Below, one piece after another: positions 5,415 through 53,232 of a DNA stretch of 64,000 bases. Where the stretch lies: positions 8,025-72,024 of the forward strand of contig CAYSKV010000002.1 in NCBI GenBank assembly GCA_964431805.1, given 5' to 3'. This DNA is from an uncultured Gammaproteobacteria bacterium (GTDB taxonomy: Bacteria > Patescibacteriota > Patescibacteriia > Patescibacteriales > GWC2-42-12). The position numbers and the translations under genes were made by a program. Under the pieces are notes generated by a model. The model was not told the origin of the DNA, did no database searches, and saw only the letters and a program-made list of their open reading frames with translations. Numbering within the stretch: the stretch's first letter is position 1; every line of letters starts with the position of its first letter.

Positions 5415-7871
5415 CTAGAAGTCTCTTATTTTTGCCTCAAACTCTTTTTCTAAATGTTTTATTAATTTTTTCTGCACTTCATCAACTTCTTCTGAAGTTA
5501 ATGTCTTATCGGCTTGATATATAATATGAAAAGCTAAGCTCTTTTTCTCCGCGCCTAGCTTATCGCCTTGATAAACATCAAATAGTTCAACTTCTTTAAT
5601 TAAATCATTAAAGTTTACAATCTGTTTCTTGATATTATTATACAATATTTTTTTATTTACCACAAATGCTAAATCCCGGCTAACAAGAGGATATTTAGAC
5701 GGCTCTTTAAACTGCTTAATCGGGCCGTTTTTTACTTGATTTAATAGCTCGGGTAAACTTATTTCCGCTATAACCGCGGATTTTTTAATACCAAAAGACT
5801 GTTTAATATTTTTTTCAAGTTCAGCTACGAATCCAATATTAGAGCCACCTACCATAATTTTTGCCGAAGCAAATTTATTATATTTTGATACTTCAAATTC
5901 AAAAGCCGCTTCTAAATTTAAAGATTTTAATAAAAATTCTATCACGCCTTTTAATTTTCTGAATAAATCTTCATTCCCATCGCTAGCTAAAGCTATGGCT
6001 AAACGCTTTTCTTGAAAAGGCAATTTTTCGCGGCCGCTATCATCTTTTTTCATTTCTCCTACTTTATTTAAAAACACGCCGCCAATTTCATAAATAGCTA
6101 TTTCAGCTTCTTGCGCTTGATTTGTTTTTATATTTTCTAAAATACCCGGAATTAAACTCGGCCTTAAAATTACTAAATCTTCGGATAACGGATTAGCTAA
6201 TTTAATTACTGAATCAAATTTTAATTTTTCAGCTTGCTGCCGACTAAGAAAAGAATAATTATAGGTTTCAATAAATCCAGCGCCTAGCGACAAAATATTT
6301 TTAATTTTTCTAACCAATAATTTTTCTTCAATCATTAATGGTGGTATTAAATCTATTTTTGGTAGTTCGGCTTTTAAATTATTATAACCATAAATTCTTA
6401 CTACTTCCTCGGCCAAATCTTCCGGTAAACTTACGTCATGTACCGCGCGCCAACTCGGCACAGTTACTTTAAAATGATTACTGCTTACCTTTATTAAAAA
6501 ACCTAGCTTTTCTAAAATTTGTTTAACTTGTTTATTGGTAAACTCATAACCAATAAATTTATTTAGCCAATTTAAATCCAATTCAATCGGTCGTTGATCC
6601 ACCCTGTTAAATAATTTTGCCTTAGGCAAAATTCCGGCTTCGCCGGATTTAACAGGGTAAACTTTATATTTTTTTTCATCAACTAAATTTGTAGCTACAC
6701 TAGCCCCGGGACAAATTTGCAAAATTAATTCTACAGCGCGAGAAATTCCTAACTCACATAAATTCGGATCCAAACCTTTTTCAAAGCGCATAGAAGATTC
6801 TGTTCTAAGACTAAGTTTTTGCGCCGTTTTTCTTACCGAATTAAAATCAAAATTAGCCGCTTCTATTATTATAGAATTCGTCTGATCATTTATTTCGCTT
6901 GTTAGCCCGCCCATAACTCCGGCTACGGCCACAGGTTTTGTTTGATTGGCAATAACTAACATACCCGATTCTAACTTTCTTTTTACGCCATCAAGCGTTT
7001 CAATAATTTCGCCAGTTTTAGAGGTTCTAACTATAATTTTATCAATAAAATTTTTATCAAAAGCGTGTAAAGGCTGGCCTAATTCAAGCATCACATAATT
7101 AGTTACATCCACTATATTATTAATCGGACGCATGCCAGCGGCCGCTAAACGATCTTGCATCCATTTCGGTGAAGGCGCAATTTTTATGCCTTCAATACCA
7201 ATTCCCATATAGCGCGGACATAAAGAAAAATTTTCAATCTTAACATCAAATTTAAAAAATATTTTTTTAGCTTTTAGAATTCCTGCTTTAGGTTGATAAT
7301 TTTTAAACTTAGTATTTAAAAATGCCGAGATATCGCGCGCCATGCCGTAGTGCGACCATAAATCAGCGCGATGGGTAATGCTTTTATTATCAACTTCAAA
7401 AACAACATCATTCAAATTTAAATAATCGCTAAAATTCTGTCCGACTTTAGCTTTGTCTAAAATTAAAATGCCGTTATGATCAGAGCCTAAGCCCAATTCA
7501 TCTTCAGCGCAAAGCATGCCATTTGATTTTACTCCTCTAATTTCTGCTGGCTTTATTTCTAAGCCATTCGGTAAAATCGCTCCGACTAAAGCTACCGGAA
7601 CTAATTGATTAGGTTTTATATTCGGCGCGCCGCAAACGATTTCTAATTTTTCTTTTCCGATATCCACTAAAGCCAACCTTAATCTATCCGCATTCGGATG
7701 AGGTTTAACTTCTAAAATTTTTCCTACGATTACATTTTTATATTTCTCGGCCTGCGCTTCAACTTTTTCTACTTCTACCGTATGTAAAGTTAAACGTTTG
7801 CCCAATTCTAAAGCCGACACTTCTTTAGGAATATCAACAAAATCACGTAACCAATTTAAGGATAGATACAT
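5415..7871 (-). CDS. pheT: Phenylalanine--tRNA ligase beta subunit
   Basis: 818 aa, starting MYLSLNWLRDFV as is typical of PheT. The length and domain order fit PheT (tRNA-binding OB, B3_4, B5, C-terminal anticodon-binding-like). It lies downstream of pheS in the same orientation. Confidence 0.95.
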   Translation of the reverse strand: MYLSLNWLRDFVDIPKEVSALELGKRLTLHTVEVEKVEAQAEKYKNVIVGKILEVKPHPNADRLRLALVDIGKEKLEIVCGAPNIKPNQLVPVALVGAILPNGLEIKPAEIRGVKSNGMLCAEDELGLGSDHNGILILDKAKVGQNFSDYLNLNDVVFEVDNKSITHRADLWSHYGMARDISAFLNTKFKNYQPKAGILKAKKIFFKFDVKIENFSLCPRYMGIGIEGIKIAPSPKWMQDRLAAAGMRPINNIVDVTNYVMLELGQPLHAFDKNFIDKIIVRTSKTGEIIETLDGVKRKLESGMLVIANQTKPVAVAGVMGGLTSEINDQTNSIIIEAANFDFNSVRKTAQKLSLRTESSMRFEKGLDPNLCELGISRAVELILQICPGASVATNLVDEKKYKVYPVKSGEAGILPKAKLFNRVDQRPIELDLNWLNKFIGYEFTNKQVKQILEKLGFLIKVSSNHFKVTVPSWRAVHDVSLPEDLAEEVVRIYGYNNLKAELPKIDLIPPLMIEEKLLVRKIKNILSLGAGFIETYNYSFLSRQQAEKLKFDSVIKLANPLSEDLVILRPSLIPGILENIKTNQAQEAEIAIYEIGGVFLNKVGEMKKDDSGREKLPFQEKRLAIALASDGNEDLFRKLKGVIEFLLKSLNLEAAFEFEVSKYNKFASAKIMVGGSNIGFVAELEKNIKQSFGIKKSAVIAEISLPELLNQVKNGPIKQFKEPSKYPLVSRDLAFVVNKKILYNNIKKQIVNFNDLIKEVELFDVYQGDKLGAEKKSLAFHIIYQADKTLTSEEVDEVQKKLIKHLEKEFEAKIRDF
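6601..6658. repeat. Y-shaped palindromic mini-element, copy 1 (inside the pheT ORF)
   Basis: The outer 12-bp stem is ACCCTGTTAAAT (6601-6612) / ATTTAACAGGGT (6647-6658). The inner hairpins are AATTTTGCC-tta-GGCAAAATT (6613-6633) and CCGGC-ttc-GCCGG (6634-6646). Confidence 0.85.
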
Positions 7872-7880
7872 ATATTAATT

Positions 7881-7911
7881 TTCAATTTCTAATTTTTAAT
7901 TTTTAAACAAT
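7881..7911. repeat. Left arm of the heptamer-repeat inverted repeat flanking the four-helix-bundle gene
   Basis: The sequence ttcaatttctaatttttaatttttaaacaat is nearly identical to the left arm at 5306-5336. Its reverse complement matches 8291-8320 at most positions. Confidence 0.7.
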
Positions 7912-7922
7912 AATTTAATTAC

Positions 7923-8267
7923 TTAATTTTTTAAACTAGAACTTATTTTATTAAAAATAAGCGTTAATTCATGTGCTTCTTTCCATAAAAGTCTTAACTT
8001 TTCAACTTCTTCTTTATTGGTTTGGGCTATAAGTTCAAGCCAATATTTAGTTTCCTGAATTTCTTTTCTACAAATATATATTTTATTTTTAAAATCTTTT
8101 CTTGAAGCAGCTCCATTAGCTTCACAATAATTTGCACCTACGCTAGTTGCCGACCTGATTAATTGTTTGACTATACTTTCGTTTATTATATTCTTATTTA
8201 ATCTTATTAATAATTCGATTATTTCTTTACTAAACTTTTTTGTCCTCTCCTCTAAATCATACTGCAT
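7923..8267 (-). CDS. Four-helix-bundle protein ('23S rRNA intervening-sequence protein' / Avd-like family)
   Basis: 114 aa. The stretch SATSVGANYCEANGAASRKDFKNKIYICRKEIQETKYWLELI matches my recollection of the PF05635/TIGR02436 signature. The gene sits between pheS and pheT. Confidence 0.8.
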   Translation of the reverse strand: MQYDLEERTKKFSKEIIELLIRLNKNIINESIVKQLIRSATSVGANYCEANGAASRKDFKNKIYICRKEIQETKYWLELIAQTNKEEVEKLRLLWKEAHELTLIFNKISSSLKN

Positions 8268-8282
8268 AATTAGGAATTAATT

Positions 8283-8320
8283 CATTGAAAATTGTTTGAA
8301 AATTAGAAATTGAAAATTTT
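8283..8320. repeat. Right arm of the heptamer-repeat inverted repeat flanking the four-helix-bundle gene
   Basis: The sequence cattgaaaattgtttgaaaattagaaattgaaaatttt is nearly identical to the right arm at 5369-5411. Confidence 0.7.
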
Positions 8321-8328
8321 AAATTATT

Positions 8329-9384
8329 CTAGAATTGTTTTAAAAATTTTAAATCACCGCTATGAAATAACCTAATATCATTAATGCCATATTTTAACAT
8401 AGCTAATCTATCTAAACCGTAACCAAAAGCAAAACCTTGATATTTTTTCGGATCAATACCGCCAGCGCGTAAAACGTTAGGATGTACCATGCCGCAACCA
8501 ACAATCTCTAACCAACCCGTTCCTTTACATAAACGACAACCCTTGCCACCGCATAAAAAACAGGAATATTCGCCATTAGATCCAGGTTCAACAAAAGGAT
8601 AAAATTTCGGACGCATTCTAAATTCAGTATCAGGGCCGAATAATTTTTTACCTAAAACTTCTAAAATAGCCTTTAAATTACTAAAATTTATATTTTTATC
8701 TATCATTAAACCTTCTAACTGATAAAAAGTATGTTCGTGGCGAACGTCGGTCGCTTCATTTCTAAAACAACGGCCGGGCACAATGCATTTTATTGGCGCG
8801 CCATATTTTTGCATGGCCCTTATCTGCATAGGCGAAGTTTGCGTGCGCATTAACATATCATACTCGCCTTTAGCATTTTTCTTGTCCTCCGTAGCTTTAG
8901 CGTAGGAGGGATGATCAATATAGAAAGTATCTTGCATGTCGCGAGCTGGATGAAAGGGAGGGATATTTAAAGCCGTAAAATTATAATAATCGCTCTCTAA
9001 TTCCGGTCCATCAAGCACCATAAAACCAAGCGAAGAAAATAAATCTTCTATTTCGTTTTGTAAAATCGTTATAGGATGCAAATGTCCTTGCTTAATTTCT
9101 ACGCCAGGTAAAGTCGCATCAACATAATCAGTCTTAGTATTTTCCCCTAAACTAATTTTAACTTCTTCAAATCTATTTATTAATTCAATTTTTATTTCAT
9201 TAGCTAATCTACCTAAAGTCTTTTTTTCTTCCGCGCTTAAATCAGCCACGCTTCTTAAAATTTTTGTCAGCTCGCCTTTTCTACCAAGATATTTTATTTC
9301 TAAATCACGCAAAATCTCTAGCTTTTTAACTTCAGCTAGTTGATTTAAAATTTCTTGCTTTAGTTTTTGTAATTTAGATTCCAT
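8329..9384 (-). CDS. pheS: Phenylalanine--tRNA ligase alpha subunit
   Basis: ORF track 8329..9417. I prefer the ATG at 9384 (MESKLQKLKQEIL) because the first 11 codons of the longer ORF overlap the upstream gene. Class II motifs are present: FRNEATDVRHEHTFYQLEG and GFAFGYGLDRLAMLKYGI. Confidence 0.93.
   Translation of the reverse strand: MESKLQKLKQEILNQLAEVKKLEILRDLEIKYLGRKGELTKILRSVADLSAEEKKTLGRLANEIKIELINRFEEVKISLGENTKTDYVDATLPGVEIKQGHLHPITILQNEIEDLFSSLGFMVLDGPELESDYYNFTALNIPPFHPARDMQDTFYIDHPSYAKATEDKKNAKGEYDMLMRTQTSPMQIRAMQKYGAPIKCIVPGRCFRNEATDVRHEHTFYQLEGLMIDKNINFSNLKAILEVLGKKLFGPDTEFRMRPKFYPFVEPGSNGEYSCFLCGGKGCRLCKGTGWLEIVGCGMVHPNVLRAGGIDPKKYQGFAFGYGLDRLAMLKYGINDIRLFHSGDLKFLKQF
8886..8909. 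repeat. Short palindromic element (CCTCC..GGAGG, 'AKATEDK' family) inside the pheS ORF
   Basis: The element is cctccgtagctttagcgtaggagg. An 18-nt core, tcctccgtagctttagcg (8885-8902), is identical to 49266-49283 in valS. It is translated as HPSYAKATEDKK. Confidence 0.8.
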
Positions 9385-9817
9385 TTTGATTAATATTATT
9401 TTCTTCTTGAATATCATTAGTGATTTTAGTCTTACTATAACTTAAAAGAAAAAATTCTAAGGCGGATAAGCCAATTATTAAAATAGCTAAATTTAACCAA
9501 CTAAATAAATTTCGTGAAAGCAAAAATAAAGCTGCTATAATAAAACCGGCGAAAAAAAATGACTGGCGAAAAGCGACTTTAACCGTGTTAATAACTAATT
9601 CATGACGAAAAATTATAAATCTAATAATAAAACCGATAATGGCGGTAGCGCCGCTGATTAATAAAAATAAAGATAAATAAAATAGAAAAAAACCAACGCT
9701 ATTAGTAGTTTCCGGGTCAACCGTAAAAACAATATAACCAAACATAACGGCGCATAGCGCCGTCATGAATGACATAACTAATAAATATAAACGTAAAGAC
9801 ATGGGATTAATTTTCAA
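9374..9817 (-). CDS. Small integral membrane protein, unknown function
   Basis: 147 aa with about four hydrophobic helices and no family I recognise. Its stop overlaps the preferred pheS start by 11 nt. Confidence 0.6.
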   Translation of the reverse strand: MKINPMSLRLYLLVMSFMTALCAVMFGYIVFTVDPETTNSVGFFLFYLSLFLLISGATAIIGFIIRFIIFRHELVINTVKVAFRQSFFFAGFIIAALFLLSRNLFSWLNLAILIIGLSALEFFLLSYSKTKITNDIQEENNINQNGI

Positions 9818-9824
9818 TTCTCAA

Positions 9825-9856
9825 TTTTCCCTGCTTAAGGCAGGACAAGCAATTTT
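9825..9856. repeat. CCTGC-hairpin element, intergenic copy
   Basis: The sequence is ttttCCCTGCTtaagGCAGGacaagcaatttt. The same flanks (ATTTTCCCTGCT ... AGCAGGACAAG-AATTTT) recur inside argS at about 44057-44096. Confidence 0.7.
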
Positions 9857-9959
9857 AAAAAAATGCCATTGAAAATTAGATAATTAATAATTCATTGATA
9901 ATTGATAATTTGTAAATTGGTAATTAATAATACTTTAACATTTTATGGCTAAATTTTCA

Positions 9960-10011
9960 ACCCTGTTAAATAAATTTTTAAGAAAAATTTCGCGTAGCGA
10001 TTTAACAGGGT
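9960..10011. repeat. Y-shaped palindromic mini-element, copy 2 (immediately after the helicase stop; probable terminator)
   Basis: The outer stem ACCCTGTTAAAT (9960-9971) / ATTTAACAGGGT (10000-10011) is identical to copy 1. The inner hairpins differ but still pair: AAATTTTT-aag-AAAAATTT (9972-9990) and CGC-gta-GCG (9991-9999). Confidence 0.85.
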
Positions 10012-12974
10012 CAACCTCTAAACTCACAAATTTCCTTAAAATCGCACCAAGCGCATAAGACTCCGGGGTTAGCTTTAAATTTACCCTGATTTATTTCTTT
10101 AATAGTATCAACAATCTTAACTTTTATTTTTTCTAAATCTTTGGCCGAGCCAATAAATTCAACCTCGCTATTATCATCAAGATAATAAAAAGCCAAGGTT
10201 TTAACTTCTTGTTTAAATAATTCCTGAACGGCTAATTGATAAATTAATAACTGCTCTTTATCTTTAAACTCAAGCTTATCTTTAGGTTTACCGGTTTTAT
10301 AATCAACTAGCTTTAAACCTTCTCCGACTTTATCAATCCGGTCAATCGCGCCGCGCACTACATACGAATCTTTACCGTCGGTAATTTTAAGATTAAAGCC
10401 TTTTTCTAGAAATAATGCCGATGGCCAGTTATCTTTATATTTTTCATAAAAACCTTTTAAAATTTCCTGACCTTGTTTTTTTCTTTCCTGCTTTTTCTTT
10501 TTAGATTCAAACCAATCATCAACCCAACTTTCTTCATAAAATTTTAAAATTTCTTCAAAAGTAATATTATCTTTTTTCGCCTTAACTTTATTATCGAATA
10601 AACCGGCCTGGCCTAAGCCCTTTTTCTCGTTAAGTAAAATAAATATTTTTTGCAAAGTTGAATGCAGGGTTTTACCGAAAGAAAATTGCTCTTTACCCAT
10701 AGTAGGAATTTTTAAAATATGGGCAAAACGATATTGATAGGGGCAGGCCGAGTAAGCCGCTAATTGCGAATAAGAAAAGTGAGTAGGAATGGCTATGTCT
10801 TTATCATCTTTAACATTCTTAACTTTTTTAGAAATTTTTAATTTATCATTTACTAATGATTTATTTTCTTCTAACGGTAATTTCTCGTTTCCAATCATAC
10901 CTAACTCTATTAAAAATCTTGATGGTTTCTTTTTAATTTTTCCGCCATAATCCGCCGCCCAAGAAAAATATAAACCAGTTTTAGCTCGCGTCATTGCCAC
11001 ATAAAATAAACGTCGTTCTTCTTCTAAATGCACGTCGCCAACGGTCAAAATTTCTTTAATTAAAGCGTCGGGTAAACTAATTTGCTCATTTCTCGCTATG
11101 GTCGGAAAGCGCTTATCCACTAAATTAGCTATAAAAACATATTTAAATTCTAAGCCTTTAGCGCCATGAACAGTTAAAATTCTAACGGCCTCAGGGCCAA
11201 CTTCTAAATCAGATTCTAAAGCGCCTTCTTCACCGGCTTCTATTTCTAAATTTAATTCAGCTAAAAAGGCTCTAACGCTTTTATCATCTGAAGAACTTTC
11301 AAAATCTTTAACTCGTTTTAAAAATTGATTTAATAAATTTATAGTTTCAAGATTTTTTTGCTCGCCTAAACGACTTAAATATTTTAAATAACCGCTGTCA
11401 TTCATAAAAGCTAAAAAAACTTCGCTGATTGGTTTTTCTCGAGCTAAAATTGAATGTTTAGAAATTAAAGTTAAAACAGCTTTTACTTTTTTTTCTAAAT
11501 CAGCCGAAAATTTTAAAACACTGCCGCTATTTATAACTTCAAAAAGCGACCAGGCCTTTTTATTAGCTAAATGATTAAAATTTACTAATTCTTCGGAAGT
11601 AAAATTAAAAATCGGTAAACTTAATATGCGCCATAAAGCTAAACTTTCATGATAATTATCTAATAATTTTAAATAAGCTACTACGTCCATAATTATCGGT
11701 TTAGCGTAAAGACCGCGCGAAGAACCGAAAATAAAAGGCAGCCCGCGGCGATCAAATTCAGCCATAAAATCATTAGCCGAATCGTTAGCGCGCACTAAAA
11801 CCGCAAAGTCATTTAGACTAACGTTTTTATTTTTATTCTTTAGTTCAATTATTTTATTTGCCACTAATTTTACTTCTCCATCTAAATCAGCGCCTTGTAA
11901 AACTTCAATTACGCCGGCGCCAGAATTTTCAGCGATTAACTTTTTACTTAAATTTTTATCTTTTTTAAATTGCCATTCTAATCGGTTCGGATTGTTTTGC
12001 TTAATAAATTCATAAGACAAATCTAAAATATTTTGTTGGCTGCGATAATTTTTAGTTAAAACTATTTTTTCAGCTTTAGGATAATCTTTGGAAAATTGCA
12101 AAATATTAGACATGGAAGCGCCGCGAAAACGATAAATTGATTGATCGTCATCGCCTACGACCGTTAGATTATTAGTCGGCTCAGCTAAAAGTTTTACTAA
12201 TTCATATTGCGCCCAATTAGTATCCTGAAATTCGTCTACTAAAATATATTTAAACTGCTTTCTATATTTTTCTAAAATCGCTGGGCGTTCGCGAAATAAT
12301 TTTAAGGTGTAGTTTATTAAGTCGCCAAAATCTATGGCGCTATTATCTAATAATAATTGCTGATAAACATGATAAGCATTAGCGATTTCATTAACGCGCG
12401 CAACTTCCTGCTCTACTATTGTCTTGTCAGAAACGCCGGATAACATACCGTCTAAATTTTGCTTTAACCCATCGGCATAATTTAAATAATCGGCCGGCGA
12501 AATATCTTCATCTTTAGCGCGAGAAAAATGTTTTAAGAGAGCGCTAATAAATTTAGTCGGATTGCCTAAGGGGCGATAATAATCTAATTCAAACTTATCT
12601 AAATTCTTTTTTATTAACGCCCATTGCTCAAACTCATTTAACAATTTAAAATCGCCTGGTAGTCCTAAGCTTAAACCATGCTCTTTTAAAATCCGCTCGG
12701 CAAAACTATGAAAAGTTGAAACCCATAAATCAAAATAACCAATCGGCAATAGCGACCCAACCCGATCTTCCATTTCCGCGGCCGCTTTTTCCGTAAAAGT
12801 TAAAGCTAAAACTTCGTCAGATTTAGCTAGGCCTTGTTCAATTAAATAAGCGATGCGCTGGGTAATAACCGTAGTTTTACCGGTACCTGCTCCAGCCACA
12901 ATTAAAAGCGGTCCGTTTTTATGTAAAACTGCTTTTAGTTGTTCTTTATTAAGATTTTCTAATAGATTATTCAT
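10011..12974 (-). CDS. UvrD/PcrA-type superfamily 1 helicase fused to a C-terminal PD-(D/E)XK (AddB/Cas4-like, Cys-cluster) nuclease
   Basis: 987 aa. The N-terminus carries AGAGTGKT (Walker A), DEFQDT and other UvrD-like blocks. The C-terminus carries SACPYQY ... DRIDK ... DYKTGK ... CAWCDFKEIC, consistent with a RecB-family nuclease with 4-Cys ligands. Confidence 0.85.
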   Translation of the reverse strand: MNNLLENLNKEQLKAVLHKNGPLLIVAGAGTGKTTVITQRIAYLIEQGLAKSDEVLALTFTEKAAAEMEDRVGSLLPIGYFDLWVSTFHSFAERILKEHGLSLGLPGDFKLLNEFEQWALIKKNLDKFELDYYRPLGNPTKFISALLKHFSRAKDEDISPADYLNYADGLKQNLDGMLSGVSDKTIVEQEVARVNEIANAYHVYQQLLLDNSAIDFGDLINYTLKLFRERPAILEKYRKQFKYILVDEFQDTNWAQYELVKLLAEPTNNLTVVGDDDQSIYRFRGASMSNILQFSKDYPKAEKIVLTKNYRSQQNILDLSYEFIKQNNPNRLEWQFKKDKNLSKKLIAENSGAGVIEVLQGADLDGEVKLVANKIIELKNKNKNVSLNDFAVLVRANDSANDFMAEFDRRGLPFIFGSSRGLYAKPIIMDVVAYLKLLDNYHESLALWRILSLPIFNFTSEELVNFNHLANKKAWSLFEVINSGSVLKFSADLEKKVKAVLTLISKHSILAREKPISEVFLAFMNDSGYLKYLSRLGEQKNLETINLLNQFLKRVKDFESSSDDKSVRAFLAELNLEIEAGEEGALESDLEVGPEAVRILTVHGAKGLEFKYVFIANLVDKRFPTIARNEQISLPDALIKEILTVGDVHLEEERRLFYVAMTRAKTGLYFSWAADYGGKIKKKPSRFLIELGMIGNEKLPLEENKSLVNDKLKISKKVKNVKDDKDIAIPTHFSYSQLAAYSACPYQYRFAHILKIPTMGKEQFSFGKTLHSTLQKIFILLNEKKGLGQAGLFDNKVKAKKDNITFEEILKFYEESWVDDWFESKKKKQERKKQGQEILKGFYEKYKDNWPSALFLEKGFNLKITDGKDSYVVRGAIDRIDKVGEGLKLVDYKTGKPKDKLEFKDKEQLLIYQLAVQELFKQEVKTLAFYYLDDNSEVEFIGSAKDLEKIKVKIVDTIKEINQGKFKANPGVLCAWCDFKEICEFRG

Positions 12975-12986
12975 GAATTAAGTTTA

Positions 12987-15900
12987 TTAACGATAAAAAA
13001 TAACATCAGAACCACTTGCAAAATCGCTTGTTAAATATCTAATAATCACAACACCTGAGCCACCATCACCGCCATATCCAGGAGTTGCGCCAGCGCATCC
13101 ACCACCACCACCACCAGTATTTAGCGTACCATCTTCTCCATTTCCTGAACCATTACTATTTCCATAACCATCGCCGCCGCCATGCGTGCCAAGGCCGTTA
13201 GTTTTAGTTCCTGCCGTCCATAAAACTCCGCCGCCGCCGCCAGCGTAACCAACTTCAACGCCACTAATAGAATTATTTAACCCCGCGCCTCCATCAGGGG
13301 CATGGTCTTTATCAGGTGGCGTTTGCCCAACAGCGCCCGCTCCGCCGCCAGCACCAGATGGATAAGGCGATTGATGAAATCCTCCATTACCTGACCCATT
13401 ATTACCTTGAGAACCATATACGGCTAAACCACCAAAAGTGTCAGCGCCACCATGAGTTGAACCGCCACCGCCAGAAGCTCCATCTTTACCATTATTTCCA
13501 TTACCACCACCACCGCCGCCGCCATAAGCAGTAATATTATCAAATACGCTATTCGTACCGTTAGCTCCCCCTGCGGAATTATTTCCAGCCACTCCTAAAC
13601 CTCCATCGCCGACTGTTATATTATATGTTTGAGGAGAAACAGCATGCTCAGATTCATAAACATAGCCACCGCCACCGCCACCGCCAGCAGCTCCACCGCC
13701 ACCGCCACCAACAACTAAAACTTCAACATTGCCAGCTTTAGGGAATGTAATTGATCCATTGGAAGTAAAAGTATGAATTGTATAATCACCGTCAATTGTA
13801 ATATCTCCTCCAGCTAAACTATCTGAAGTTTTTGTTTTAAAAATAACTTGACTAGAAATATTAAAATCACTAGTTAAATATTTAATAATAACAATACCTG
13901 AACCGCCGTTGCCACCATTAGAATTAGAGACTCCTGAGCTAGTTGATCCCCCTCCTCCACCACCGCCAGTATTAGCAATTCCGTCGCTACCACTTTGGCC
14001 TACAAGGCCTCCATCGCCACCTCCACCAATCCCGCCTATGCCGCCATTGCTAGATTTACCACCTCCGCCTCCACCACCAGCGTAATAAACAGAAGAACCA
14101 CTTATGGAGTAAGCTAAACCATCGCCACCGTTACCACCCACAGAACTAGTTCTAGTTTGCCCAACAGAATTAGCACCGCCACCTCCGGAACCAGCGCGGT
14201 ATGTTGTAGTATTAGTTAGTGCGTCACCGCCATTATTACCTTGCCCAGATGTTCCTTGTGAGGCTGCAGTGGATTGGCTATATGAATTTGCTGCGCCACC
14301 GCCAGAACCTCCGTCTGCGCCCTTGTTTACGCCAGTTGGATCATCATTATCTGAACCGCCACCGCCACCTCCGATAGCTATTAATGAGTCAAAAATACTA
14401 TTTTCACCATTACTGCCTTTGTTGGAAATTAACGTGGCACCATTACCACCATTTCCAACAGTAACAGTCTTAACTCCAGTAGTTACTGCATAGGAGGCAT
14501 TATAAATTAAACCGCCTGCTCCTCCTCCACCACCGCCATCTCCATTACCACCTAATTCAGCGTGTCCTCCTCCACCACCGCCAGCAACAACTAATACTTC
14601 AACATTTCCACTTTTAGGAAATGTAATAGTTCCGTCAGAAGTAAAAGTATGAATTGTATAGTCACCGTCATAAGTTACATTACCTCCAGTAAGAGCAGAG
14701 GGGTTCGTGCGAAAAATTATTCTTCTACTTAAAGACGTATCATCAAAATCATTATTTAAATATCTAATAATAACTATACCTGAACCGCCTTTACCTCCAG
14801 CTTGAAAACCGGCTCCGCCGCCACCTCCACCCGAACCAGTTCCGTCTGTTCCAGCCGTTCCAGCCGTATCTCTCCAACCGCCATGTCCTCCAATTCCGCT
14901 TCCTCCATCACCGCCACCGCCGCCGTCATAACCTCCTGCTCCACCGCCAGCCGCATAATAAGTCGGCGTTCCGCTTATGCTATTACTTGTTCCATCGCCG
15001 CCATTACCTCCTTGATTGCCAACTCCATTAGCGCCAATAGATCCTGAACCGCCGCCGCCGCCACCACCTAAATTAGAGGCAACTGCTCCTGTCCCTCCAT
15101 TATTTCCTTGAGAAGGCACAGTTGCTGGAGTATTGCCGGAACCGCCTACCCCGCTAAAACATTGTCCGCCGCCGCCTGAACCGCCGTTGTTTCCAGGAGT
15201 GGCACCACTACCACTTGGACCGCCACCAGCTCCGCCGCCAGCCGCAGTAATAGTAGAAAAAATACTAGCTTCACCATTACTCGCCGAGCCTGAACTACCA
15301 GGCCCGCCAGATCCGCCATCGCCAACTGTTATATTATATTCTTGAGCAGAAACGGGAAAAGATGAAACATATCTATAGCCGCCTGCTCCGCCACCACCAG
15401 CTGCATTTCCACCGCCACCACCGCCGCCACCAACCACTAAAACATCTACATTGCCAGCTTTATTAAATGTTATTGTCCCATCAGAAATAAAAGTATGAAC
15501 GGTATAATTACCATAATGACTTATTGTTCCGCCATCAGGATGAGTAGAATTATAAGCATAAGCTATTTGATCGCCAAACTCAAAACGCAAAACATGATTA
15601 CCGGCTTTTTTAGTAAAATTAATAACTTTGCCGTTGCCGGCGCAAAACCAATTTGGATAAAAAATAACATCACCAGCTAAAATTTGTGGATCTTTTTTTT
15701 CTCCGTCGCAAAATAATGACACAAACTCATCATCATCTATTGTCGCCTGATCATTAGGAATTATTTTTAAATCAGCCGTGCCTTTAGTAGAAAATTCAAC
15801 CTCCCAATTTTCTCCTTGTTGAGGATGCGAATGAATATTTAAAACAACTACTTCTATCGTCGGATCTAAAACCACCGGATATTTGGCTTTATCCAACCAT

Positions 15901-16511
15901 TCTTGATTTGGTTTGATAGTTAAAAATCCATCATTAGTTAAATTAGTTTCAACTTCTCCGGTTGAACTTTTTTTATTATCAGCATCAATTAAAAATGGCG
16001 CTGGAATATCAAAAACCCGATAAAGCTGTTCTCCTTTTTTACCTTTAACATAAAAAATGAAATTACCTTCTTTATCTTTTTCAAAATCATAAAAAGTTAA
16101 ATCTATCTGATAAGCAAATTCTTTAGGATGACCGGGCTGTTTTAAAATTATATCTTCTTTTATCTTATCGCTAAATTTTGTTTGCACTATATCAGTATTA
16201 TTAAAAGCATCAATATATTTAATAACATTATCGCTTAATACTTGAGCCTTAGCCTCTAAGGCGCCTAACGGCACGATAGAAAATTCATGATTAAATAATT
16301 TTATTTTTAATTGTCCATTATAAAAGGCGGGCTGTGATATTTCAAGAACAGATTTATTATTAGTAAGAGAATCTTCTTCTAAATTAATAAAAACACTATA
16401 AATTGAAGCGCCTATAGCAAAAACAAAAACGGCCATAACAAAAATAGAAAGAATATTTATTTTCTGTTCTTTAGTAATTTTAAAAATTGATTTTAAAAAC
16501 TTTTTTACCAT
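12987..16511 (-). CDS. Membrane-anchored glycine-rich surface protein with three ~270-aa Gly-rich modules
   Basis: 1174 aa. It has an N-terminal TM (ILSIFVMAVFVFAIGASIY) and a ~330-aa non-repetitive domain. Three modules follow, each starting G[ND]YT[VI]HTF[IT]S.G.ITF.K.GNV.VLVV-GGGGGG and ending GGSG[IV]VII[RK]YL..DF. Confidence 0.85.
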   Translation of the reverse strand: MVKKFLKSIFKITKEQKINILSIFVMAVFVFAIGASIYSVFINLEEDSLTNNKSVLEISQPAFYNGQLKIKLFNHEFSIVPLGALEAKAQVLSDNVIKYIDAFNNTDIVQTKFSDKIKEDIILKQPGHPKEFAYQIDLTFYDFEKDKEGNFIFYVKGKKGEQLYRVFDIPAPFLIDADNKKSSTGEVETNLTNDGFLTIKPNQEWLDKAKYPVVLDPTIEVVVLNIHSHPQQGENWEVEFSTKGTADLKIIPNDQATIDDDEFVSLFCDGEKKDPQILAGDVIFYPNWFCAGNGKVINFTKKAGNHVLRFEFGDQIAYAYNSTHPDGGTISHYGNYTVHTFISDGTITFNKAGNVDVLVVGGGGGGGGNAAGGGGAGGYRYVSSFPVSAQEYNITVGDGGSGGPGSSGSASNGEASIFSTITAAGGGAGGGPSGSGATPGNNGGSGGGGQCFSGVGGSGNTPATVPSQGNNGGTGAVASNLGGGGGGGSGSIGANGVGNQGGNGGDGTSNSISGTPTYYAAGGGAGGYDGGGGGDGGSGIGGHGGWRDTAGTAGTDGTGSGGGGGGAGFQAGGKGGSGIVIIRYLNNDFDDTSLSRRIIFRTNPSALTGGNVTYDGDYTIHTFTSDGTITFPKSGNVEVLVVAGGGGGGHAELGGNGDGGGGGGAGGLIYNASYAVTTGVKTVTVGNGGNGATLISNKGSNGENSIFDSLIAIGGGGGGSDNDDPTGVNKGADGGSGGGAANSYSQSTAASQGTSGQGNNGGDALTNTTTYRAGSGGGGANSVGQTRTSSVGGNGGDGLAYSISGSSVYYAGGGGGGGKSSNGGIGGIGGGGDGGLVGQSGSDGIANTGGGGGGGSTSSGVSNSNGGNGGSGIVIIKYLTSDFNISSQVIFKTKTSDSLAGGDITIDGDYTIHTFTSNGSITFPKAGNVEVLVVGGGGGGAAGGGGGGGYVYESEHAVSPQTYNITVGDGGLGVAGNNSAGGANGTNSVFDNITAYGGGGGGGNGNNGKDGASGGGGSTHGGADTFGGLAVYGSQGNNGSGNGGFHQSPYPSGAGGGAGAVGQTPPDKDHAPDGGAGLNNSISGVEVGYAGGGGGVLWTAGTKTNGLGTHGGGDGYGNSNGSGNGEDGTLNTGGGGGGCAGATPGYGGDGGSGVVIIRYLTSDFASGSDVIFYR
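13021..15513 (-). repeat. Three tandem diverged Gly-rich coding modules (about 15513-14743, 14665-13861, 13795-13021)
   Basis: Boundaries were estimated from the recurring DNA for G[ND]YT.HTF (e.g. aaagtatgaa..gtata at ~15491, ~14642, ~13771) and for VII[RK]YL (~14760, ~13880, ~13040). Confidence 0.7.
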
Positions 16512-16513
16512 TT

Positions 16514-16897
16514 GTCATTGCGAGCGTAAGCGAAGCAATCTCACGAACTATAAATCTTCGCTTAAATCTCGCCATTTTAGATTAACTTTTTTTATTAATT
16601 CTATTTTCTTTTTTCTTGAACCGCTTTTTATTTGTTTTTCTCTAGCAATCGCATCATTAATATTATTAAACATCTCATAATAAACTAATTTATCTGCGTT
16701 ATATTTAGCAGTAAAACTTTGTTTATTTTCTTTTGTTTTATGATAATAATTTCTATTTAATAAATTATTACTTACCCCTGTATATAAAACTGAATTCCAT
16801 CTATTGGTGTTTATATAAACATAATATTGTTTTTCCTCCTTCATATTATCAATTATTATTCGTGGGATTGCTTCGTCGTTTCACTCCTCGCAATGAC
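16514..16897. mobile_element. GIY-YIG nuclease mini-element bounded by ~31-36-bp terminal inverted repeats
   Basis: The left end is gtcattgcgagcgtaagcgaagcaatctcac (16514-16544). The right end, 16862-16897, is the reverse complement of gtcattgcgaggagtgaaacgacgaagcaatcccac. Each end contains an ATTGC..GCAAT hairpin, and the only cargo is the 98-aa GIY-YIG ORF. Confidence 0.6.
16548..16844 (-). CDS. GIY-YIG nuclease family protein (COG2827-like)
   Basis: 98 aa. The sequence YYVYINTNRWNSVLYTGVSNNLLNRNYYH ... KLVYYEMFNNINDAIAREKQIKSGSRKKKIELI fits the small stand-alone GIY-YIG (URI) domain. Confidence 0.8.
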   Translation of the reverse strand: MKEEKQYYVYINTNRWNSVLYTGVSNNLLNRNYYHKTKENKQSFTAKYNADKLVYYEMFNNINDAIAREKQIKSGSRKKKIELIKKVNLKWRDLSEDL

Positions 16898-19832: not shown

Positions 19833-22800
19833 TTATTTTGTACATCTAAATCCTACATTATTATTTTGTTCTGCAGGACTATGCGATAAGTCAAGACTAT
19901 AGATTCCATCAAACCCTCTAATAAAACCTCTAACAGGAACGTCGCCTGCTCCGGTTAATATTTTACCAATTCCATTATTAGAAGATGTCAAATAATATGC
20001 GGGTTTAAGATATTGTAAAGATTTAAATGACGATATTAAATTATATTCCTGCCATTCATCTGAGAGCGGATTAATTGTATCATCTTGAGTAATATTTGAA
20101 TCTGTCCACTCACTCACCTCGCCCACTAAATTGTTAATCAAGTTATCATTATTTAATTTGTAAGATATGGAAGTGGTGGCGAGTTGCATGCCAGCAATAT
20201 TGGTATCGCTATCATTGTCAGGATTTTGCAAAATATTTTCAGCGATAGTTAACCATTCATTTTCACCAATTAAGTGATAACCCGTGCCTAGAGTTTGGCA
20301 AGCGATTTGAGCTTCGCCCTGAGAGATATTAGTTTTGATTTGGTCTAATTCATCTTTCATTAAATCTGCTTGGACGCAGAAACCAGGCAAGGTGCCATAT
20401 TTAGCTGAGCCAGGCACCCAGACAAAACCGTCTTCGCAATAACCCTCGAAAGCTCCGGCCACAACTTTGCCTTCAACGCCTAAATCAGCCATGGTTTCAT
20501 CAACCGCTGAGTCTAGGGCGTTAGAGCAATAACCGCCGGCGCAGAGCATAATACGACCGTCAACTAACATTGAGCCTGCGACTTTAACTTCACCGCTTTG
20601 AGCTATATTCATAATAGAGACGCCGTTAGCTTGAAAATCTGCGATATCGCCTGAACCTGATTGATTAACTATGAATGCGGTTTTAGTTGAGGAAGCGGTT
20701 ATTTCGGTTAGTTCAACAATCTTAACTTCTGGCTCTTGGCCTGGTTCTGAGACTGAATCTTTACCGATTATGATGCTGCCGTTTTCATCAAACGACATTA
20801 TATTCTCACCATTCTGGTTTTGTAAAAATAGAGCTTGTGGAGTAATACCGCTGGCGGCTTCGGTAAAGCGGAAATTGTTGGCAAAAATTAAATCACCGAC
20901 GTAGGAGTTAGTGGCGTGCAGAGTGCCTAAAACATCTAAATTACTGGCGATGGTTGAAGTACCGGTTCCGCCGACTTCGAGGAGGCCTGAGATATAGGCT
21001 GAATTATATTTATCGCCAGCGAGTAGATAGACTGGGGTGCTTGAACCAACCGTCAGAAGAGCTTGAGGAGAGGTGGTGCCGATGCCGACATTGCCTGAAG
21101 CGTCAATAATGAACGGCGTAGCGTCGGGAGAAGTAGAGTCTTCAACTATAAAACTCGGACCGGTACCGGTGTTGGTGACGGACAATTTAGCGTAAGGAGT
21201 AGTAGAGCCGATGCCAACTTTTCCAGTCGATAAAGTTGTTCCTGTTCCATCCATTCCGGTTGCAAAAATCAGATTGCCAATATTAAGTTGATTACTTGTA
21301 GTTGGAGATGTGAGTTCAACATCTTTTCCAATAAGTATGTTGTTTGCTCCAGAGCCTAAAACTGAACCGGAATCAGAACCGATTACAATATTATAATTGC
21401 CAACAGTTGTTGCTGATGCTTGATAACCAGCAGCATATCCTAAATATGTGCCATAGCTTCCTTGAGCATTTCTACCAGCACCATATCCTAGAGCATTATT
21501 GCTATTGTTGTTTGTAGTAAGACCAAAAAGAGCATGACTACCGAAAGCATTATTAAAAGAATATGAATAATTAGAATTGTTTCTTAAAGCGTTCTGGCCA
21601 AAAGCAGCATTGGATGATCCTGTTTGATTTCCTTGTAAAGTAGCATACCCAAAACCAGCATTGCCAATACCTGAAATTAGCGAGGCAACAGCGCCATTAC
21701 CAAAAGCATCATTATCATTTCCTGTTGTTAAGGCAGCTAAAGCTCCTGAGCCAAAAGCTGATGAAGTTGAACCTCTTGTAACAACAGGCATAGCACCATT
21801 TCCAAAAGCAGTAACATAATTTCCAAGCCTACCAAAAACTACTCCATCACGATAAATTATTCCTGCCGTTGTATTGTTTTTATTATAAATCCAATCAGTA
21901 GCAGTTGTATCCATTGCGCTATTGTCACTATAAGTTGTTGTGGTGTTGTCATTTATGGTTCCAATATAATAAAGGTAATAATAATCTCCGACGGTTCCAG
22001 CCTGCGAGCGATAAATCTTTCTTTTAGTAACTCTTGGATCGGTAGAAGTTGGAATATTTGAAATTGAAACACTGAAATCACTAGCAGAAGTTATTGTAGG
22101 GAAAATAGTATAGGAGGCTCCACCTGTATCTCCATCCGCTGTCCCGAAGGCTACCGCGTAATAATATGTTCCGGCTGGTATTGATCCGGCGCCACTATTA
22201 GTTAGAACCATTCCTTGAGTTTGAGCATTTGTTGGATTAGCCACCGTATCAAAATTAAAGTTTCCTGCTACTTCAAGAGTTTTTGATATTGTTGTGTCAT
22301 ATGACTGCCCGATTTTTACCCTATTGTCATCACGGGCCATGATAATATTATTGCCGGATGAATTATTAACATTAAAACTATAAGTGGATGATGTTGATCC
22401 CGATCCGATTATGCTAAGTCTTGAGGTAGGTGAAGTCGTTCCAATTCCCACATTACCATTACTCGCCACAGTTAAATAAGTTGATGTAGCGGCACCAGCG
22501 GTTGAAGAAGCTACAACGAACAAAGGAGCAGAACCACCCAAAGTATTTTCTACTGATAATTTAGCATAAGGAGAAGTTGTACCGATGCCGACGTTACCAG
22601 ATGTGGAATCTATAGTCATTCTCGCAGTATCATTAGTGAAAAATTGAAGTGGTGTTGCATTATCTGTTCCAAACACCGTTGCATATGTCAAGCCTCCGTT
22701 ACCAAATATTCCTGTTCCCGCACTACTTGAAACCCCAATTCTTCCTGCTCCCAAACCAGCGTTATTAAAAGCAATATAATAACCGGAAGTTGTATCTACT

Positions 22801-25800
22801 CCGATTGTTCCTCCATATGCAGAAATTGATCCAGTGGTTGAAAATGAATTTGCAGTAACTCCTGAATTAAAAGTAAAGTTTACTCCAGAACTTTTTGTTA
22901 TAGAACCATCACCCAAAGAAATACCGCCCGTAGAACCATTTCCAAAAATAGCATTTGAAGTTGAACTTGCTCTAAAAGTACCGGCGACATCTAGCGAATA
23001 ACTTGGATTCGTCGTGCCGATGCCGACATCGCCGGAGTTATCAATTACCATTTTCGTAGTAACTGCTCCGAAGCCGGTGCCGAAGGCCAGACCGGTCGCG
23101 CCCGCGCCGAATGTATAGCCTCTAATATCGGCCAATTCCGAACCCGAGCTGGTGCCGTTGCCCGTGAAGACAATCCGCGGACCGCTACCGACAGTAGCGG
23201 AAGCCACGGCCGCCTGGAGTTTAAGCACATTTTGTCCGCTCGTACTTACCGCCGCCGAGCTATAAACATCCAGCAAGGTATTGGGCGTAGTTGTGCCGAT
23301 CCCGACATTGCCTGAAGCGTCAATAATGAACGGCGTAGCGTCGGGAGAAGTAGAGTCTTCAACTATAAAACTCGGACCGGTACCGGTGTTGGTGACGGAC
23401 AATTTAGCGTAAGGAGTAGTAGAGCCGATGCTGACATCGCCGGAGTTATCAATTACCATTTTCGTAGTAACTGCTCCGAAGCCGGTGCCGAAGGCCAGAC
23501 CGGTCGCGCCCGCGCCGAATGTATAGCCTCTAATATCGGCCAATTCCGAACCCGAGCTGGTGCCGTTGCCCGTGAAGACAATCCGCGGACCGCTACCGAC
23601 AGTAGCGGAAGCCACGGCCGCCTGGAGTTTAAGCACATTTTGTCCGCTCGTACTTACCGCCGCCGAGCTATAAACATCCAGCAAGGTATTGGGCGTAGTT
23701 GTGCCGATACCGACGTTGCCGCTACCTTTCATAACAAAACCAATTGTGTCGACAGTTGAAGTTAAGCCAGCAGAATATCTAAAAGCAATTGCGTCATTAA
23801 TATCATTATTTAATAAATCAAAAACAAAATGATTATTTGCTGCTGATGATAAACGAGTAGCATACGACGTAGAGCCAGGATTTAAACCAGAAACATTAGA
23901 ATATGGATCTATAATTAAACCTCCACCAATTGCTGTTGAAGGGAGTACCGTTATAACATCTGCTCCAATAGTTTCATCTTTTAAATAAAAATTGCCGCCG
24001 TGAGTACGTATACTATAAGAACGAAGGGTTGCATAATTATCATCTAAAGTAATTTTGGGATTATCAGATTGTAGATAAAGTAAACTATTTGGACTCGTCG
24101 TCCCAATTCCCACATTCCCGTTACTAGCTATATATAAACTGCTGGTCGCTGTCCAGGCAGAATTTTGATAAGTTAAAGTTTGCCCGGTTGCGCCGATTGG
24201 CAAAGAATCAATACCTGCCGTAAATAAAGTTGAAGTAGCTACCCACTCAGTAGCTGAACCAGTGGTTTTTAAAATCATACCGTTAGTTCCGGCCGATGAT
24301 AATGAATCATACAATGCTCCGGTTAGAGCCATATTGCCGGCGACTGAGAGAGTTTGATAAGGGGAAGTTGTGCCTACACCAAGATTAGTCCCATCAAATA
24401 CAAAATTAGCGTTATCAGTTAATCTTCCATTTGTTGTAGCAAAAGGAATACGACCAGAAATAAGATCAATCCCATCATTTAAAACAAAACCTTTTCTATC
24501 ACCAACAACACTCCCTGATTGTAACTCTATTCTTCTAACGCCCATCCAACTTTCAGTAGACCATCTATCTGCGAATTTAAATGCGTAATATCGATATGCA
24601 GTATTATTTGTAACATTTATATATTTAGGATCGGCCTGATCTGCTGCAACATGTTGATCAAAAGTAGATTGAGAAGTTGTTAGCTGAGTCCAATTAGTGT
24701 CTATTCCATAAGTAAGTTCAGCAAATGCGTTCGCGTCATTAGAACCCCACAAAGTGAAATTTTTCACACCACCGCCAGTTGATCCTCCGTAATGATGAGC
24801 ATTCTCATAATATATTCTTGTTACTACCATACTTGAACCAAGATCTATATGGAATCGCTGATTAGTGATACTGCCATTTGCCCCTACCCATGAATTATTA
24901 TTTTGTTGACTTCCTGTAACTGATAATGATGGATTAGTAGCATAATAAGGCCAATAAGATGCATCATATATTGATGTTGCTTTGACGTAAGTATCTGAAT
25001 AAGCTAAAGGATAATTTGAAACAAAGCCGTTTGAATTTATTGATCCATAAAATGAATTACCGTCAAATTCTATTGCCCCAGCCTCAGATGTAGCTAATAA
25101 TGTCCCGGCTGTAAATTTAAGCGGAGCAGCCCCGGCGGTAGTGGTTCCTGCCGCTAGATGCAAAAACGCTGATGGAGAGGTAACACCAACCCCAATATTT
25201 CCATTCGCCTCTATATATAAACTCGAAGTCGCAGTCCAGGCAGAATTTTGATAAGTTAAAGTTTGGCCGTTTGTTCCGGTTGGTAAAGTACTAACTCCGG
25301 CCGTGAATAAAGTTGAAGTCGCTACCCACTCAGTAGCCGAACCGGTAGTTTTTAAAATCATGCCGTTAGTTCCGGCTGACGATAATGAATCATAAAATGC
25401 TCCTGTTAAAGCCATGTTGCCAGAAACGGAAAGAGTCTGATAAGGAGAAGTTGTGCCGATGCCGACGTTGCCGGTATTTGTTATGGTTAAAAAAGCATGA
25501 GATGTTGCCGCAGTTTCTCTGTCATGAGCTGATACAGAACTCTTTCTTCCAACTACATAATAATCTGATGATATATTATCATAAGGTCGTCCACTAAACC
25601 ATTCTGTATCGCTACTTCCATTAAACATATACAAACCCTGCCCTCTCTTAACGTCAGCTGAAGTATTTAATACTAAAGCACCGCCATGATAAAGTGATGA
25701 ATTTGTACCAGTAATAGTTAATTCTGGATATAAACCAGAAATTTCCACAGCAGTTGTCGGATTCGTAGTTCCAACGCCCACATTTCCATTACTCGCTACA

Positions 25801-53141: not shown

Positions 53142-53215
53142 GGGCGTGTAGCTCAGCTGGTTAGAGCACGGCTCTTATAAAGCCGGGGTCGATGGTTCAA
53201 GTCCATCCACGCCCA
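53142..53215 (+). tRNA. tRNA-Ile, anticodon UAU
   Basis: Hand-folded cloverleaf. Acceptor GGGCGTG/CACGCCC; D arm GCTC-AGCTGGTTA-GAGC; anticodon stem CGGCT/AGCCG with loop C-T-TAT-A-A (anticodon at 53176-53178); variable loop GGGTC; T arm GATGG-TTCAAGT-CCATC; discriminator A. CCA is not encoded (the gene is followed by CCT). Confidence 0.85.
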
Positions 53216-53232
53216 CCTTTAAAATAATATTT

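Follow-up and report, generated by a model that had tools for sequence, protein, structure and literature searches.

We analysed a 64,000-nt stretch of contig CAYSKV010000002.1 (hereafter the window) around a short Y-shaped palindromic element at positions 9960-10011, which was recognised from its sequence, its folds and its absence from a close relative (L122, see below). The element lies at the end of a gene for a 987-aa AddA-like UvrD-helicase/PD-(D/E)XK nuclease (10011-12974, minus strand; Pfam PF00580 at 1.6e-83, PF13361 and PF12705), hereafter the helicase gene. It consists of a 50-nt core, CCCTG...CAGGG (9961-10010), and an additional A9960/T10011 pair. The left arm, ACCCTGTTAAAT (9960-9971), is followed by inner hairpin 1, AAATTTTT-AAG-AAAAATTT (9972-9990), which is of the AATT type, by inner hairpin 2, CGC-GTA-GCG (9991-9999), a GNA triloop with a C·G closing pair, and by the right arm, ATTTAACAGGGT (10000-10011). 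T10011 is the last paired base of the element and also the third base of the helicase TGA stop codon (10013-10011, minus strand), an overlap that the earlier note on this sequence had correctly placed. Alignment of occupied and empty sites showed that the core is flanked by a 4-nt direct repeat, TCAA (TTGA on the gene strand), at 9957-9960 and 10011-10014, and that the second repeat includes the stop codon.

The helicase-end element is referred to here as copy 2. Copy 1 is located at 6601-6658 within pheT (5415-7871, minus strand, 818 aa), a gene identified by Pfam matches and by alignment of PheT proteins. It lies inside the pheT open reading frame (ORF), between the B3_4 and B5 domains, and encodes in frame the 20 residues YPVKSGEAGILPKAKLFNRV. 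Its parts are, in order, ACCCTGTTAAAT (6601-6612), AATTTTGCC-TTA-GGCAAAATT (hairpin 1, 6613-6633), CCGGC-TTC-GCCGG (hairpin 2, 6634-6646) and ATTTAACAGGGT (6647-6658). The 12-bp outer stem is identical in the two copies and encloses two perfect hairpins that differ from copy to copy, with the AT-rich hairpin first on the plus strand in both. Reading the sequence bore out what the earlier note had said of the shared stem, its orientation and the inner hairpins. The arm 12-mer occurs exactly four times in the 64 kb, these being the two arm pairs, while arm pairs with up to two mismatches occurred on average about 0.5 times per shuffled window (20 shuffles), compared with the two exact copies present.

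Folding was compared with shuffled controls, as had been proposed for both copies. The results showed that both strands of both copies (four in all) fold as a perfect three-way junction without unpaired junction bases, with z-scores of -4.5 to -7.0 under RNA parameters and -6.7 to -9.6 under DNA parameters, and that none of 200 shuffles was as good in any case. Folded as RNA, copy 2 reached -16.3 kcal/mol (z = -4.5). A tRNA/tmRNA scan showed nothing at the copy 2 site, and Rfam gave no match for the element at the gathering score and only noise at E <= 10 (mir-4659, for instance, scored 14.5 bits where the cut-off is 92). The lack of conserved unpaired nucleotides at the junction ruled out ribozymes built on three-way junctions, such as hammerhead and twister.

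One arm of copy 2 also contributes to a promoter-like match (10/12) on the minus strand at 9940-9969, in which the arm sequence TTAACA forms the -35 and TAAAAT the -10 hexamer, 18 nt apart. This match points to the downstream 147-aa ORF (9374-9817).

Copies are insertions that differ between relatives

Contigs of two relatives were fetched via the closest PheT homologues, which have 816, 798, 798 and 870 aa. L122 is syntenic with the window (helicase, 142-aa ORF, pheS and pheT), and both Y copies are absent from it. The 798-aa PheT proteins (P0002, P0003; L122 pheT) lack exactly the residues encoded by copy 1, which makes pheT of the window 60 nt (20 aa) longer than that of L122. For the helicase end, the sequence is TTTAGAGGTTGAAAATTTAG in L122 and TTTAGAGGTTGA-[50-nt core]-TTGAAAATTTAG on the gene strand of the window. 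The occupied site therefore exceeds the empty one by 54 nt, made up of the 50-nt core and one additional TTGA. These comparisons show that the copies are insertions, polymorphic between relatives. They also show that copy 2 was inserted into a TTGA overlapping the helicase stop, which gave TTGA-core-TTGA with the stop codon retained. The element lies flush against the stop codon because the target TTGA, which holds the TGA, stands on both sides of the core.

Two more pairs of occupied and empty sites were located in GIY-YIG genes, and in both the gain was the core plus 4 nt. The net gain was therefore the core plus 4 nt in all four comparisons. No single rule that we tried for the flanking tetranucleotides, whether duplication of the target, insertion on its 3' side or hairpin-templated correction, fits all four pairs.

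L123, a further relative, carries a decayed copy at the helicase site, with the right arm ATTTAATGGGG and the hairpins TAC-TAT-GTA and AATTTTT-GCA-AAAAATT. Compared with copy 2 of the window, both hairpins of this copy have diverged and their pairing is preserved. The inner hairpins of the two window copies had earlier been called compensatory; these copies are mainly two different members of the family, and divergence at one and the same site with pairing kept was found only in the comparison with L123. Short contigs from the window's own population (99.7-99.9% identity) contain both copies unchanged.

An AT-rich insertion of about 110 nt lies between copy 2 and the next gene (9806-9950), with inverted repeats ATTAATTTTCAATT.. 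/ ..AATTGGTAATTAAT. It is absent in L122 and present in an altered form in L123.

The family and its GIY-YIG unit

The family consensus comprises arms of 11-15 bp, TTYA-CCCYGTKAAAT ... ATTTMACRGGG-TRAA, around two short hairpins of free sequence, with a total length of 45-70 nt. We scanned a one-genome-per-species collection, metagenome contigs and viral contigs, the exact-arm pattern being CCCTGTTAAAT-N20-50-ATTTAACAGGG. The exact-arm pattern was found at no fewer than 120 loci, and hence at least 120, in the one-genome-per-species collection, and a degenerate arm pattern at at least 120 loci in metagenome contigs. In all, these scans yielded at least 251 distinct Y copies across many phyla. 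Viral contigs gave only one match, and the element is therefore not phage-borne. The hosts among the matches listed include many Patescibacteria classes, Desulfobacterales, WOR-3, Omnitrophota, Bacteroidota, Cloacimonadota and others, a list of phyla that may be inflated by binning errors in metagenome-assembled genomes (MAGs); the evidence for Desulfobacterales is robust and includes a single-cell genome and a 4.1-Mb contig.

Among the copies listed, 93 of 126 distinct interiors have a clean structure of two abutting perfect hairpins. Over the 126 interiors, the inner hairpins have a median stem of 5 bp and loops that are mostly TTC/GAA or TTT/AAA, and their sequence is otherwise free and tracks the G+C content of the host. 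The inner stems contain 1108 pairs, comprising 1085 Watson-Crick pairs (98%), 4 G·T, 13 A·C and 6 others. An RNA structure under selection would show many G·U pairs on one strand. The near-absence of G·T pairs, together with folds that are equal on both strands, shows that the interiors are constrained as DNA palindromes and not as selected RNA. About a third of the Y copies listed have interiors that start or end with AATT. Both orders of the inner hairpins relative to the asymmetry of the flanks occur, and no relation between the two was found.

Of 132 copies listed, 21 (16%) lie inside long ORFs and 8 directly after the end of an ORF, in agreement with the earlier proposal that one family occurs both as a coding insert and 3' of genes. 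Clustering of the proteins around the 120 loci listed revealed no recurrent neighbour, including any transposase or REP-associated tyrosine transposase (RAYT; REP, repetitive extragenic palindrome). The gene clusters that do recur there are conserved housekeeping-type genes only, which we take to be ribosomal.

Some variants were also noted. A subclass from WOR-3/Stahlbacteria (L012, L016, L020, L027, L055 and L081; in reverse complement in L050, L063, L065, L086 and L111) has the same arms around a conserved 40-nt interior without hairpins, and direct AACCACAGA repeats at its flanks. In Desulfobacterales (L074, L088, L115, L036 and others), the Y element is central in longer conserved repeats of about 170 nt. 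At L043 (1150-1300), a Y element lies in the loop of an SRM hairpin that adjoins an Ssn-type GIY-YIG gene.

A small GIY-YIG gene in L123 is enclosed by an arm-like pair, TTTA-CCCCGTGAAAT ... ATTTCACGGGG-TGAA, and the protein of this gene was reconstructed and used as a query. The search returned more than 3900 homologues with 75-96% identity, nearly all of exactly 84 aa. The motif SY[LF]TG, in the context ...RLKSY(F/L)TG, was present in all 14 homologues read; it forms the C-terminal end in 10 and is followed by further residues in 4 (P0209, P0239, P0135 and P0162). In a 26-sequence alignment, R77, L78, K79, S80, Y81 and G84 were invariant, as were Y5, R26 and E62, the candidate catalytic residues of the GIY-YIG domain. 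At the DNA level, SYLTG followed by the stop is TCN TAT TTA ACA GGG TGA, which is the right arm and its flank. The right arm is thus part of the invariant C-terminal coding sequence in more than 3900 homologues, indicating that gene and arms form one old unit.

The unit is about 330 bp long, has 15-bp inverted repeats, and contains as its only gene that of the 84-aa single-domain GIY-YIG protein. We obtained DNA for nine units (L123, L124, L125, L127 with two, L128, L129, and L132 with two). All nine have TT(T/C)A-CCCYGTKAAAT-AATTTTAAATT about 10-20 nt before the ATG, and in all nine the gene ends in ATTT(A/C)ACNGGG-T(G/A)A, that is, ..TCT TAT TT(A/C) ACN GGG T(G/A)A. The arms of the first L127 unit are exactly CCCTGTTAAAT/ATTTAACAGGG. 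Position 7 of the left arm is T in the four units with a Leu codon (TTA) and G in the five with a Phe codon (TTC), without exception; this position follows the Leu/Phe codon, indicating that the two repeats covary. The same covariation was found in gene-less copies from an unbiased degenerate scan, with 97 (T,A), 19 (G,C) and 4 non-complementary combinations (Fisher P = 5e-18). These results show that the copies share their terminal repeats with a nuclease-encoding unit, and that the repeats covary.

Copy 2 of the window corresponds to this unit in three parts. Its left arm matches the terminal inverted repeat of the unit family, its right arm encodes ..Y-L-T-G in the parent unit, and its AATT-type hairpin 1 resembles the left subterminal AATTTTAAATT. 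Intermediate deletion derivatives with interiors of 73 and 87 nt retain the subterminal AATTTTAAATT, and in a long Y copy (L060) the hairpins are palindromised subterminal sequences of the unit ends. Y copies are also present in GIY-YIG genes, at two different sites.

The 84-aa protein has a GIY-YIG domain (PF01541, Pfam 1.9e-15), and its best match, both by sequence and by a structure model (pLDDT 77.5), is the UPF0213 protein BH0048, the nearest solved structure. On these grounds it is predicted to be a UPF0213/Slx1-like GIY-YIG nuclease. Other small GIY-YIG genes with different inverted repeats, starting with CCCTG or CCCG, were seen in L132 (4300-4640) and L108 (7290-7600), the pairs being CCCTGCACCTTAATT/AATTAAGGTGCAGGG and CCCGTTAGGGA/..CTAACGGGA. 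Such genes with inverted repeats of their own suggest a wider set of nuclease/repeat pairs.

Mobility of the element and competing explanations

We consider it probable (about 0.7) that copy 2 is a non-autonomous member, resembling a miniature inverted-repeat transposable element (MITE) or a REP, of a widespread palindromic insertion family linked to the GIY-YIG unit. It is likewise probable that the Y element is a selfish DNA sequence rather than one built to terminate transcription. The nearest precedent is Ssn, a group of GIY-YIG nucleases with a single domain. They bind the NTS hairpins on either side of their own genes and cut only single-stranded DNA (ssDNA), next to the repeats (PMC11893778). 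The authors of that work remarked on an architecture like that of insertion sequences (IS) and raised mobility of the repeats as a hypothesis only. Enzymes of the SLX1 lineage of GIY-YIG proteins are described in a passage of PMC9071465 as structure-selective nucleases.

By analogy with these enzymes, we infer a mechanism in which either strand of the element, once single-stranded, would adopt the shape of a perfect Y, a three-way junction. The GIY-YIG nuclease, provided in trans, would recognise the folded arms or the junction in ssDNA and nick the stem at its base, much as Ssn acts on NTS hairpins and Slx1-type enzymes act on branched DNA. Replication or repair by the host would then complete the mobilisation. 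Any effects on the helicase mRNA, for example through the added 3' stem or the outward -35-like TTAACA in the arm, would be a by-product.

Several observations weigh against this reading. The 84-aa unit is absent from the 64-kb window and from 1.65 Mb around about 250 Y copies; Y copies and the unit were found in one genome only in L123, L124, L127 and a JAUSEG01 MAG (L003 + L128), so that mobilisation in trans rests on few co-occurrences. The junctions follow no consistent rule. A clean 4-nt direct repeat (TTGA/TTGA) is present only at copy 2, one of the four comparisons; at the other three, TAGA was replaced by TTTA..TGGA, TGAA by TTCA..TAGA and TTTG by CTCG..TAAA, and the replaced tetranucleotide differs from both new flanks. 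Among the 251 copies listed, a T·G/C·A mismatch at flank position +/-2 is conserved in 151 and perfectly complementary flanks are depleted (20 against 50.6 expected), while direct 4-nt flank repeats are enriched (10 against 3.0 expected) yet form a minority. In addition, GIY-YIG nucleases hydrolyse DNA and none is known to perform strand transfer, so that nicking does not in itself account for insertion.

It is possible, although we put this at somewhat below even odds, that the ~330-bp unit and its 45-70-nt Y derivatives constitute a class of mobile element not so far described in prokaryotes, spread over many phyla and present in frame even in essential genes. Such an element would move without a transposase, by way of a folded three-way-junction intermediate of ssDNA that a GIY-YIG nuclease selective for both structure and sequence would cut. 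If so, the ~330-bp unit is perhaps the smallest autonomous mobile element of prokaryotes. Our literature searches (GIY-YIG with inverted repeats, UPF0213/YhbQ, palindromic in-frame elements), whose coverage was incomplete, found no description of such an element, and literature matches to the arm sequence were primers and chance matches only, including a Picrophilus pPO1 primer.

Alternatively, the Y repeats may be domesticated recognition sites that are not primarily selfish, serving as marks for an ssDNA nuclease that would restrict or modulate ssDNA on its entry or during replication, as NTS do for SsnA in Neisseria. The Ssn/NTS precedent itself (PMC11893778), the conservation of the arms across phyla, the conserved flank mismatch, which gives the repeat a direction, and the classical Ssn-type unit that the window also holds are in keeping with such a role. 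However, copies disrupt GIY-YIG genes themselves, are tolerated in essential genes such as pheT only in frame, and are polymorphic between close relatives, all of which is parasite-like behaviour. We regard domestication as unlikely.

The earlier note had read copy 2 at the level of RNA, as positioned like a transcription terminator or a 3' stabiliser of the mRNA. Under this explanation, the helicase mRNA would carry the Y stem at its end as an intrinsic terminator or as a REP-like protection against exonucleases; REPs are described in a passage of PMC3733652 as stabilising upstream mRNA. The position of copy 2 directly after the stop codon, its stable RNA fold and the 8 listed family copies that directly follow an ORF end are consistent with it. 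The evidence nevertheless went against the claim. No T-tract follows the stem, the gene strand continuing as TGAAAATTTAGCC, and a scan of 9300-10400 flagged no terminator-like site at the element. In L122, where the element is absent, 38 nt separate the helicase gene from the next gene and no terminator is therefore needed there. The antisense fold is identical, Watson-Crick pairs make up 98% of the inner stems and G·T pairs only 4 of 1108, the copies inside ORFs make up 16% of those listed, and the arms are accounted for by the GIY-YIG unit. A dedicated RNA-level function is thus quite improbable, although an incidental effect of copy 2 on mRNA 3' ends is possible.

A conventional transposase, either of the REP/RAYT or IS200/IS605 type (HUH) or of the DDE type, might instead mobilise the element, with the GIY-YIG gene as cargo trapped between the arms. 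The gain of the core plus 4 nt with a specific end tetranucleotide resembles IS200/IS605 insertion, an ssDNA fold would bring both ends together, and IS608 inserts 3' of its target tetranucleotide. Yet no transposase or RAYT gene recurs near the 120 loci listed, the right arm belongs to the invariant C-terminal codons of the GIY-YIG homologues, the sequence of the inner hairpins is free although an HUH enzyme would have to read it, and no GTAG or CGTC tag is present. This explanation has little probability in our view. A tyrosine recombinase site of the Xer/dif or integron attC kind is very improbable: the identity of TGTTAAAT to the outermost 8 nt of the XerD arm of E. coli and the fit of GTTAAAT/ATTTAAC to the attC R'/R'' consensus serve as leads only, whereas the arms face the wrong way (TTAAAT ends toward the interior, and the order is GTTRRRY...RYYYAAC, the reverse being expected), there is no 6-8-bp central region and no extrahelical base, the stems are perfect, and no integrase lies in the neighbourhood.

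The reading of the Y element as a mobile derivative of the GIY-YIG unit can be set beside several known systems. Like Ssn with its NTS/SRM repeats (Chenal et al. 2025, PMC11893778), it combines a small single-domain GIY-YIG gene bracketed by an inverted-repeat sequence with gene-less dispersed copies of the same sequence that fold as ssDNA hairpins, in an IS-like architecture. The criterion for Ssn is a single-domain GIY-YIG protein of about 90-100 aa in the cd10448 clade; the 84-aa protein, judged by Pfam and nearest structure, is a single-domain GIY-YIG protein nearest to UPF0213 BH0048 and has 32% identity (E = 7e-6) to the Ssn-type protein of the window. The 84-aa gene splits a single palindrome into its two halves, and its right repeat is coding, whereas SRM are complete hairpins on both sides of the gene. 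The arms, TTYACCCYGTKAAAT, are unrelated to the SRM consensus CGTCATTCCCGCGMAVGCGGGAATCYRG (CGTCATTCCCGCG..GCGGGAATCYRG), and the dispersed Y copies are three-way junctions with 16% of those listed in ORFs, against 2% for NTS.

Bacterial MITEs are similarly short and non-coding, have terminal inverted repeats in common with a gene-carrying relative (here in all nine units), occur in many copies with insertion polymorphism and nested insertions, and duplicate their target, of which one clean 4-nt case was found here. The Y element differs in its length of 45-70 nt, far below the usual size, in an interior made of two perfect hairpins, in a partner that encodes a GIY-YIG nuclease and no transposase, and in an inconsistent rule of target duplication. 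Rickettsia palindromic elements (RPEs) are comparable in insertion behaviour: these palindromic repeats, too, interrupt essential genes in frame and are translated into additional peptide segments, which is what copy 1 does in PheT. They measure about 100-150 bp, are restricted to Rickettsia and have no known link to a GIY-YIG unit.

REPs and bacterial interspersed mosaic elements (BIMEs) with RAYT, and IS200/IS605 with palindrome-associated transposable elements (PATEs), are also tiny palindromes that act as folded ssDNA beside a tetranucleotide, with small asymmetries that mark orientation, often at gene ends. In contrast to these, the Y element has no HUH/Y1 transposase near the 120 loci listed and no GTAG/CGTC tag, and it is Y-shaped with 98% perfect hairpins of free sequence, whereas theirs is a single imperfect hairpin. 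The inverted terminal repeat of adeno-associated virus (AAV, a parvovirus) offers a structural analogy only: it has a T/Y fold with an outer stem around two small palindromes, and the occurrence of both inner-hairpin orders relative to the flank asymmetry is like its 'flip/flop', but it has no relation to the Y element in sequence, size or biology, nor in its enzyme (HUH Rep).

If the reading as a GIY-YIG-linked mobile element is true, the pairing of GIY-YIG proteins with repeats known from Ssn/NTS extends to a second protein clade, to a repeat that is a perfect three-way junction and to very many uncultivated lineages. It would also provide direct evidence from occupied and empty sites that such repeats move, which the Ssn work had as a hypothesis, and the mobility of a nuclease-only element would become open to experiment. 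The arms would explain recurrent 15-20-residue "mystery" inserts in conserved proteins of the candidate phyla radiation (CPR), as well as apparent structures in 3' untranslated regions that could be mis-annotated as terminators or non-coding RNAs. The nuclease clade may yield new ssDNA- or junction-specific enzymes.

Neighbouring genes and repeats

The window contains a 98-aa single-domain GIY-YIG gene (16548-16844, minus strand), within 16512-16897, with NTS/SRM-like hairpins, GTCATTGCGAGG...CGAAGCAATCC and its inverse, at the flanks. This region represents a unit of the classical Ssn type, and its genome also carries the Y elements.

A 23S_rRNA_IVP (four-helix-bundle) gene (7923-8267, minus strand) lies between pheS and pheT, within 7872-8328, and is surrounded by 16-bp inverted repeats, TTCAATTTCTAATTTT. 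At the same spot, pheS and pheT are 8 nt apart in L122, and an Ssn-type GIY-YIG gene is present in L123. The site is filled differently among relatives, indicating that it is a landing pad for different small single-gene cassettes.

Several further short inserts, likewise in frame, occur in PheT homologues at positions that these have in common (TPLIPLLKGDGRG, PSINSGQ, ISTPRLAGEKSLKG...), and they are encoded by different palindromic repeats, for example CCCCCTTTTAAAGGGGG (L123, 10045-10090). The PheT linker with copy 1 is a hotspot for at least two element families.

The window also encodes a tRNA-Ile with the anticodon UAU (53142-53217), an uncommon reading of AUA, which adjoins a tRNA-Val(GAC). 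A single 4543-aa ORF occupies 19833-33464 on the minus strand, and the neighbouring ORF at 12987-16511 has a Gly_rich_2 domain.

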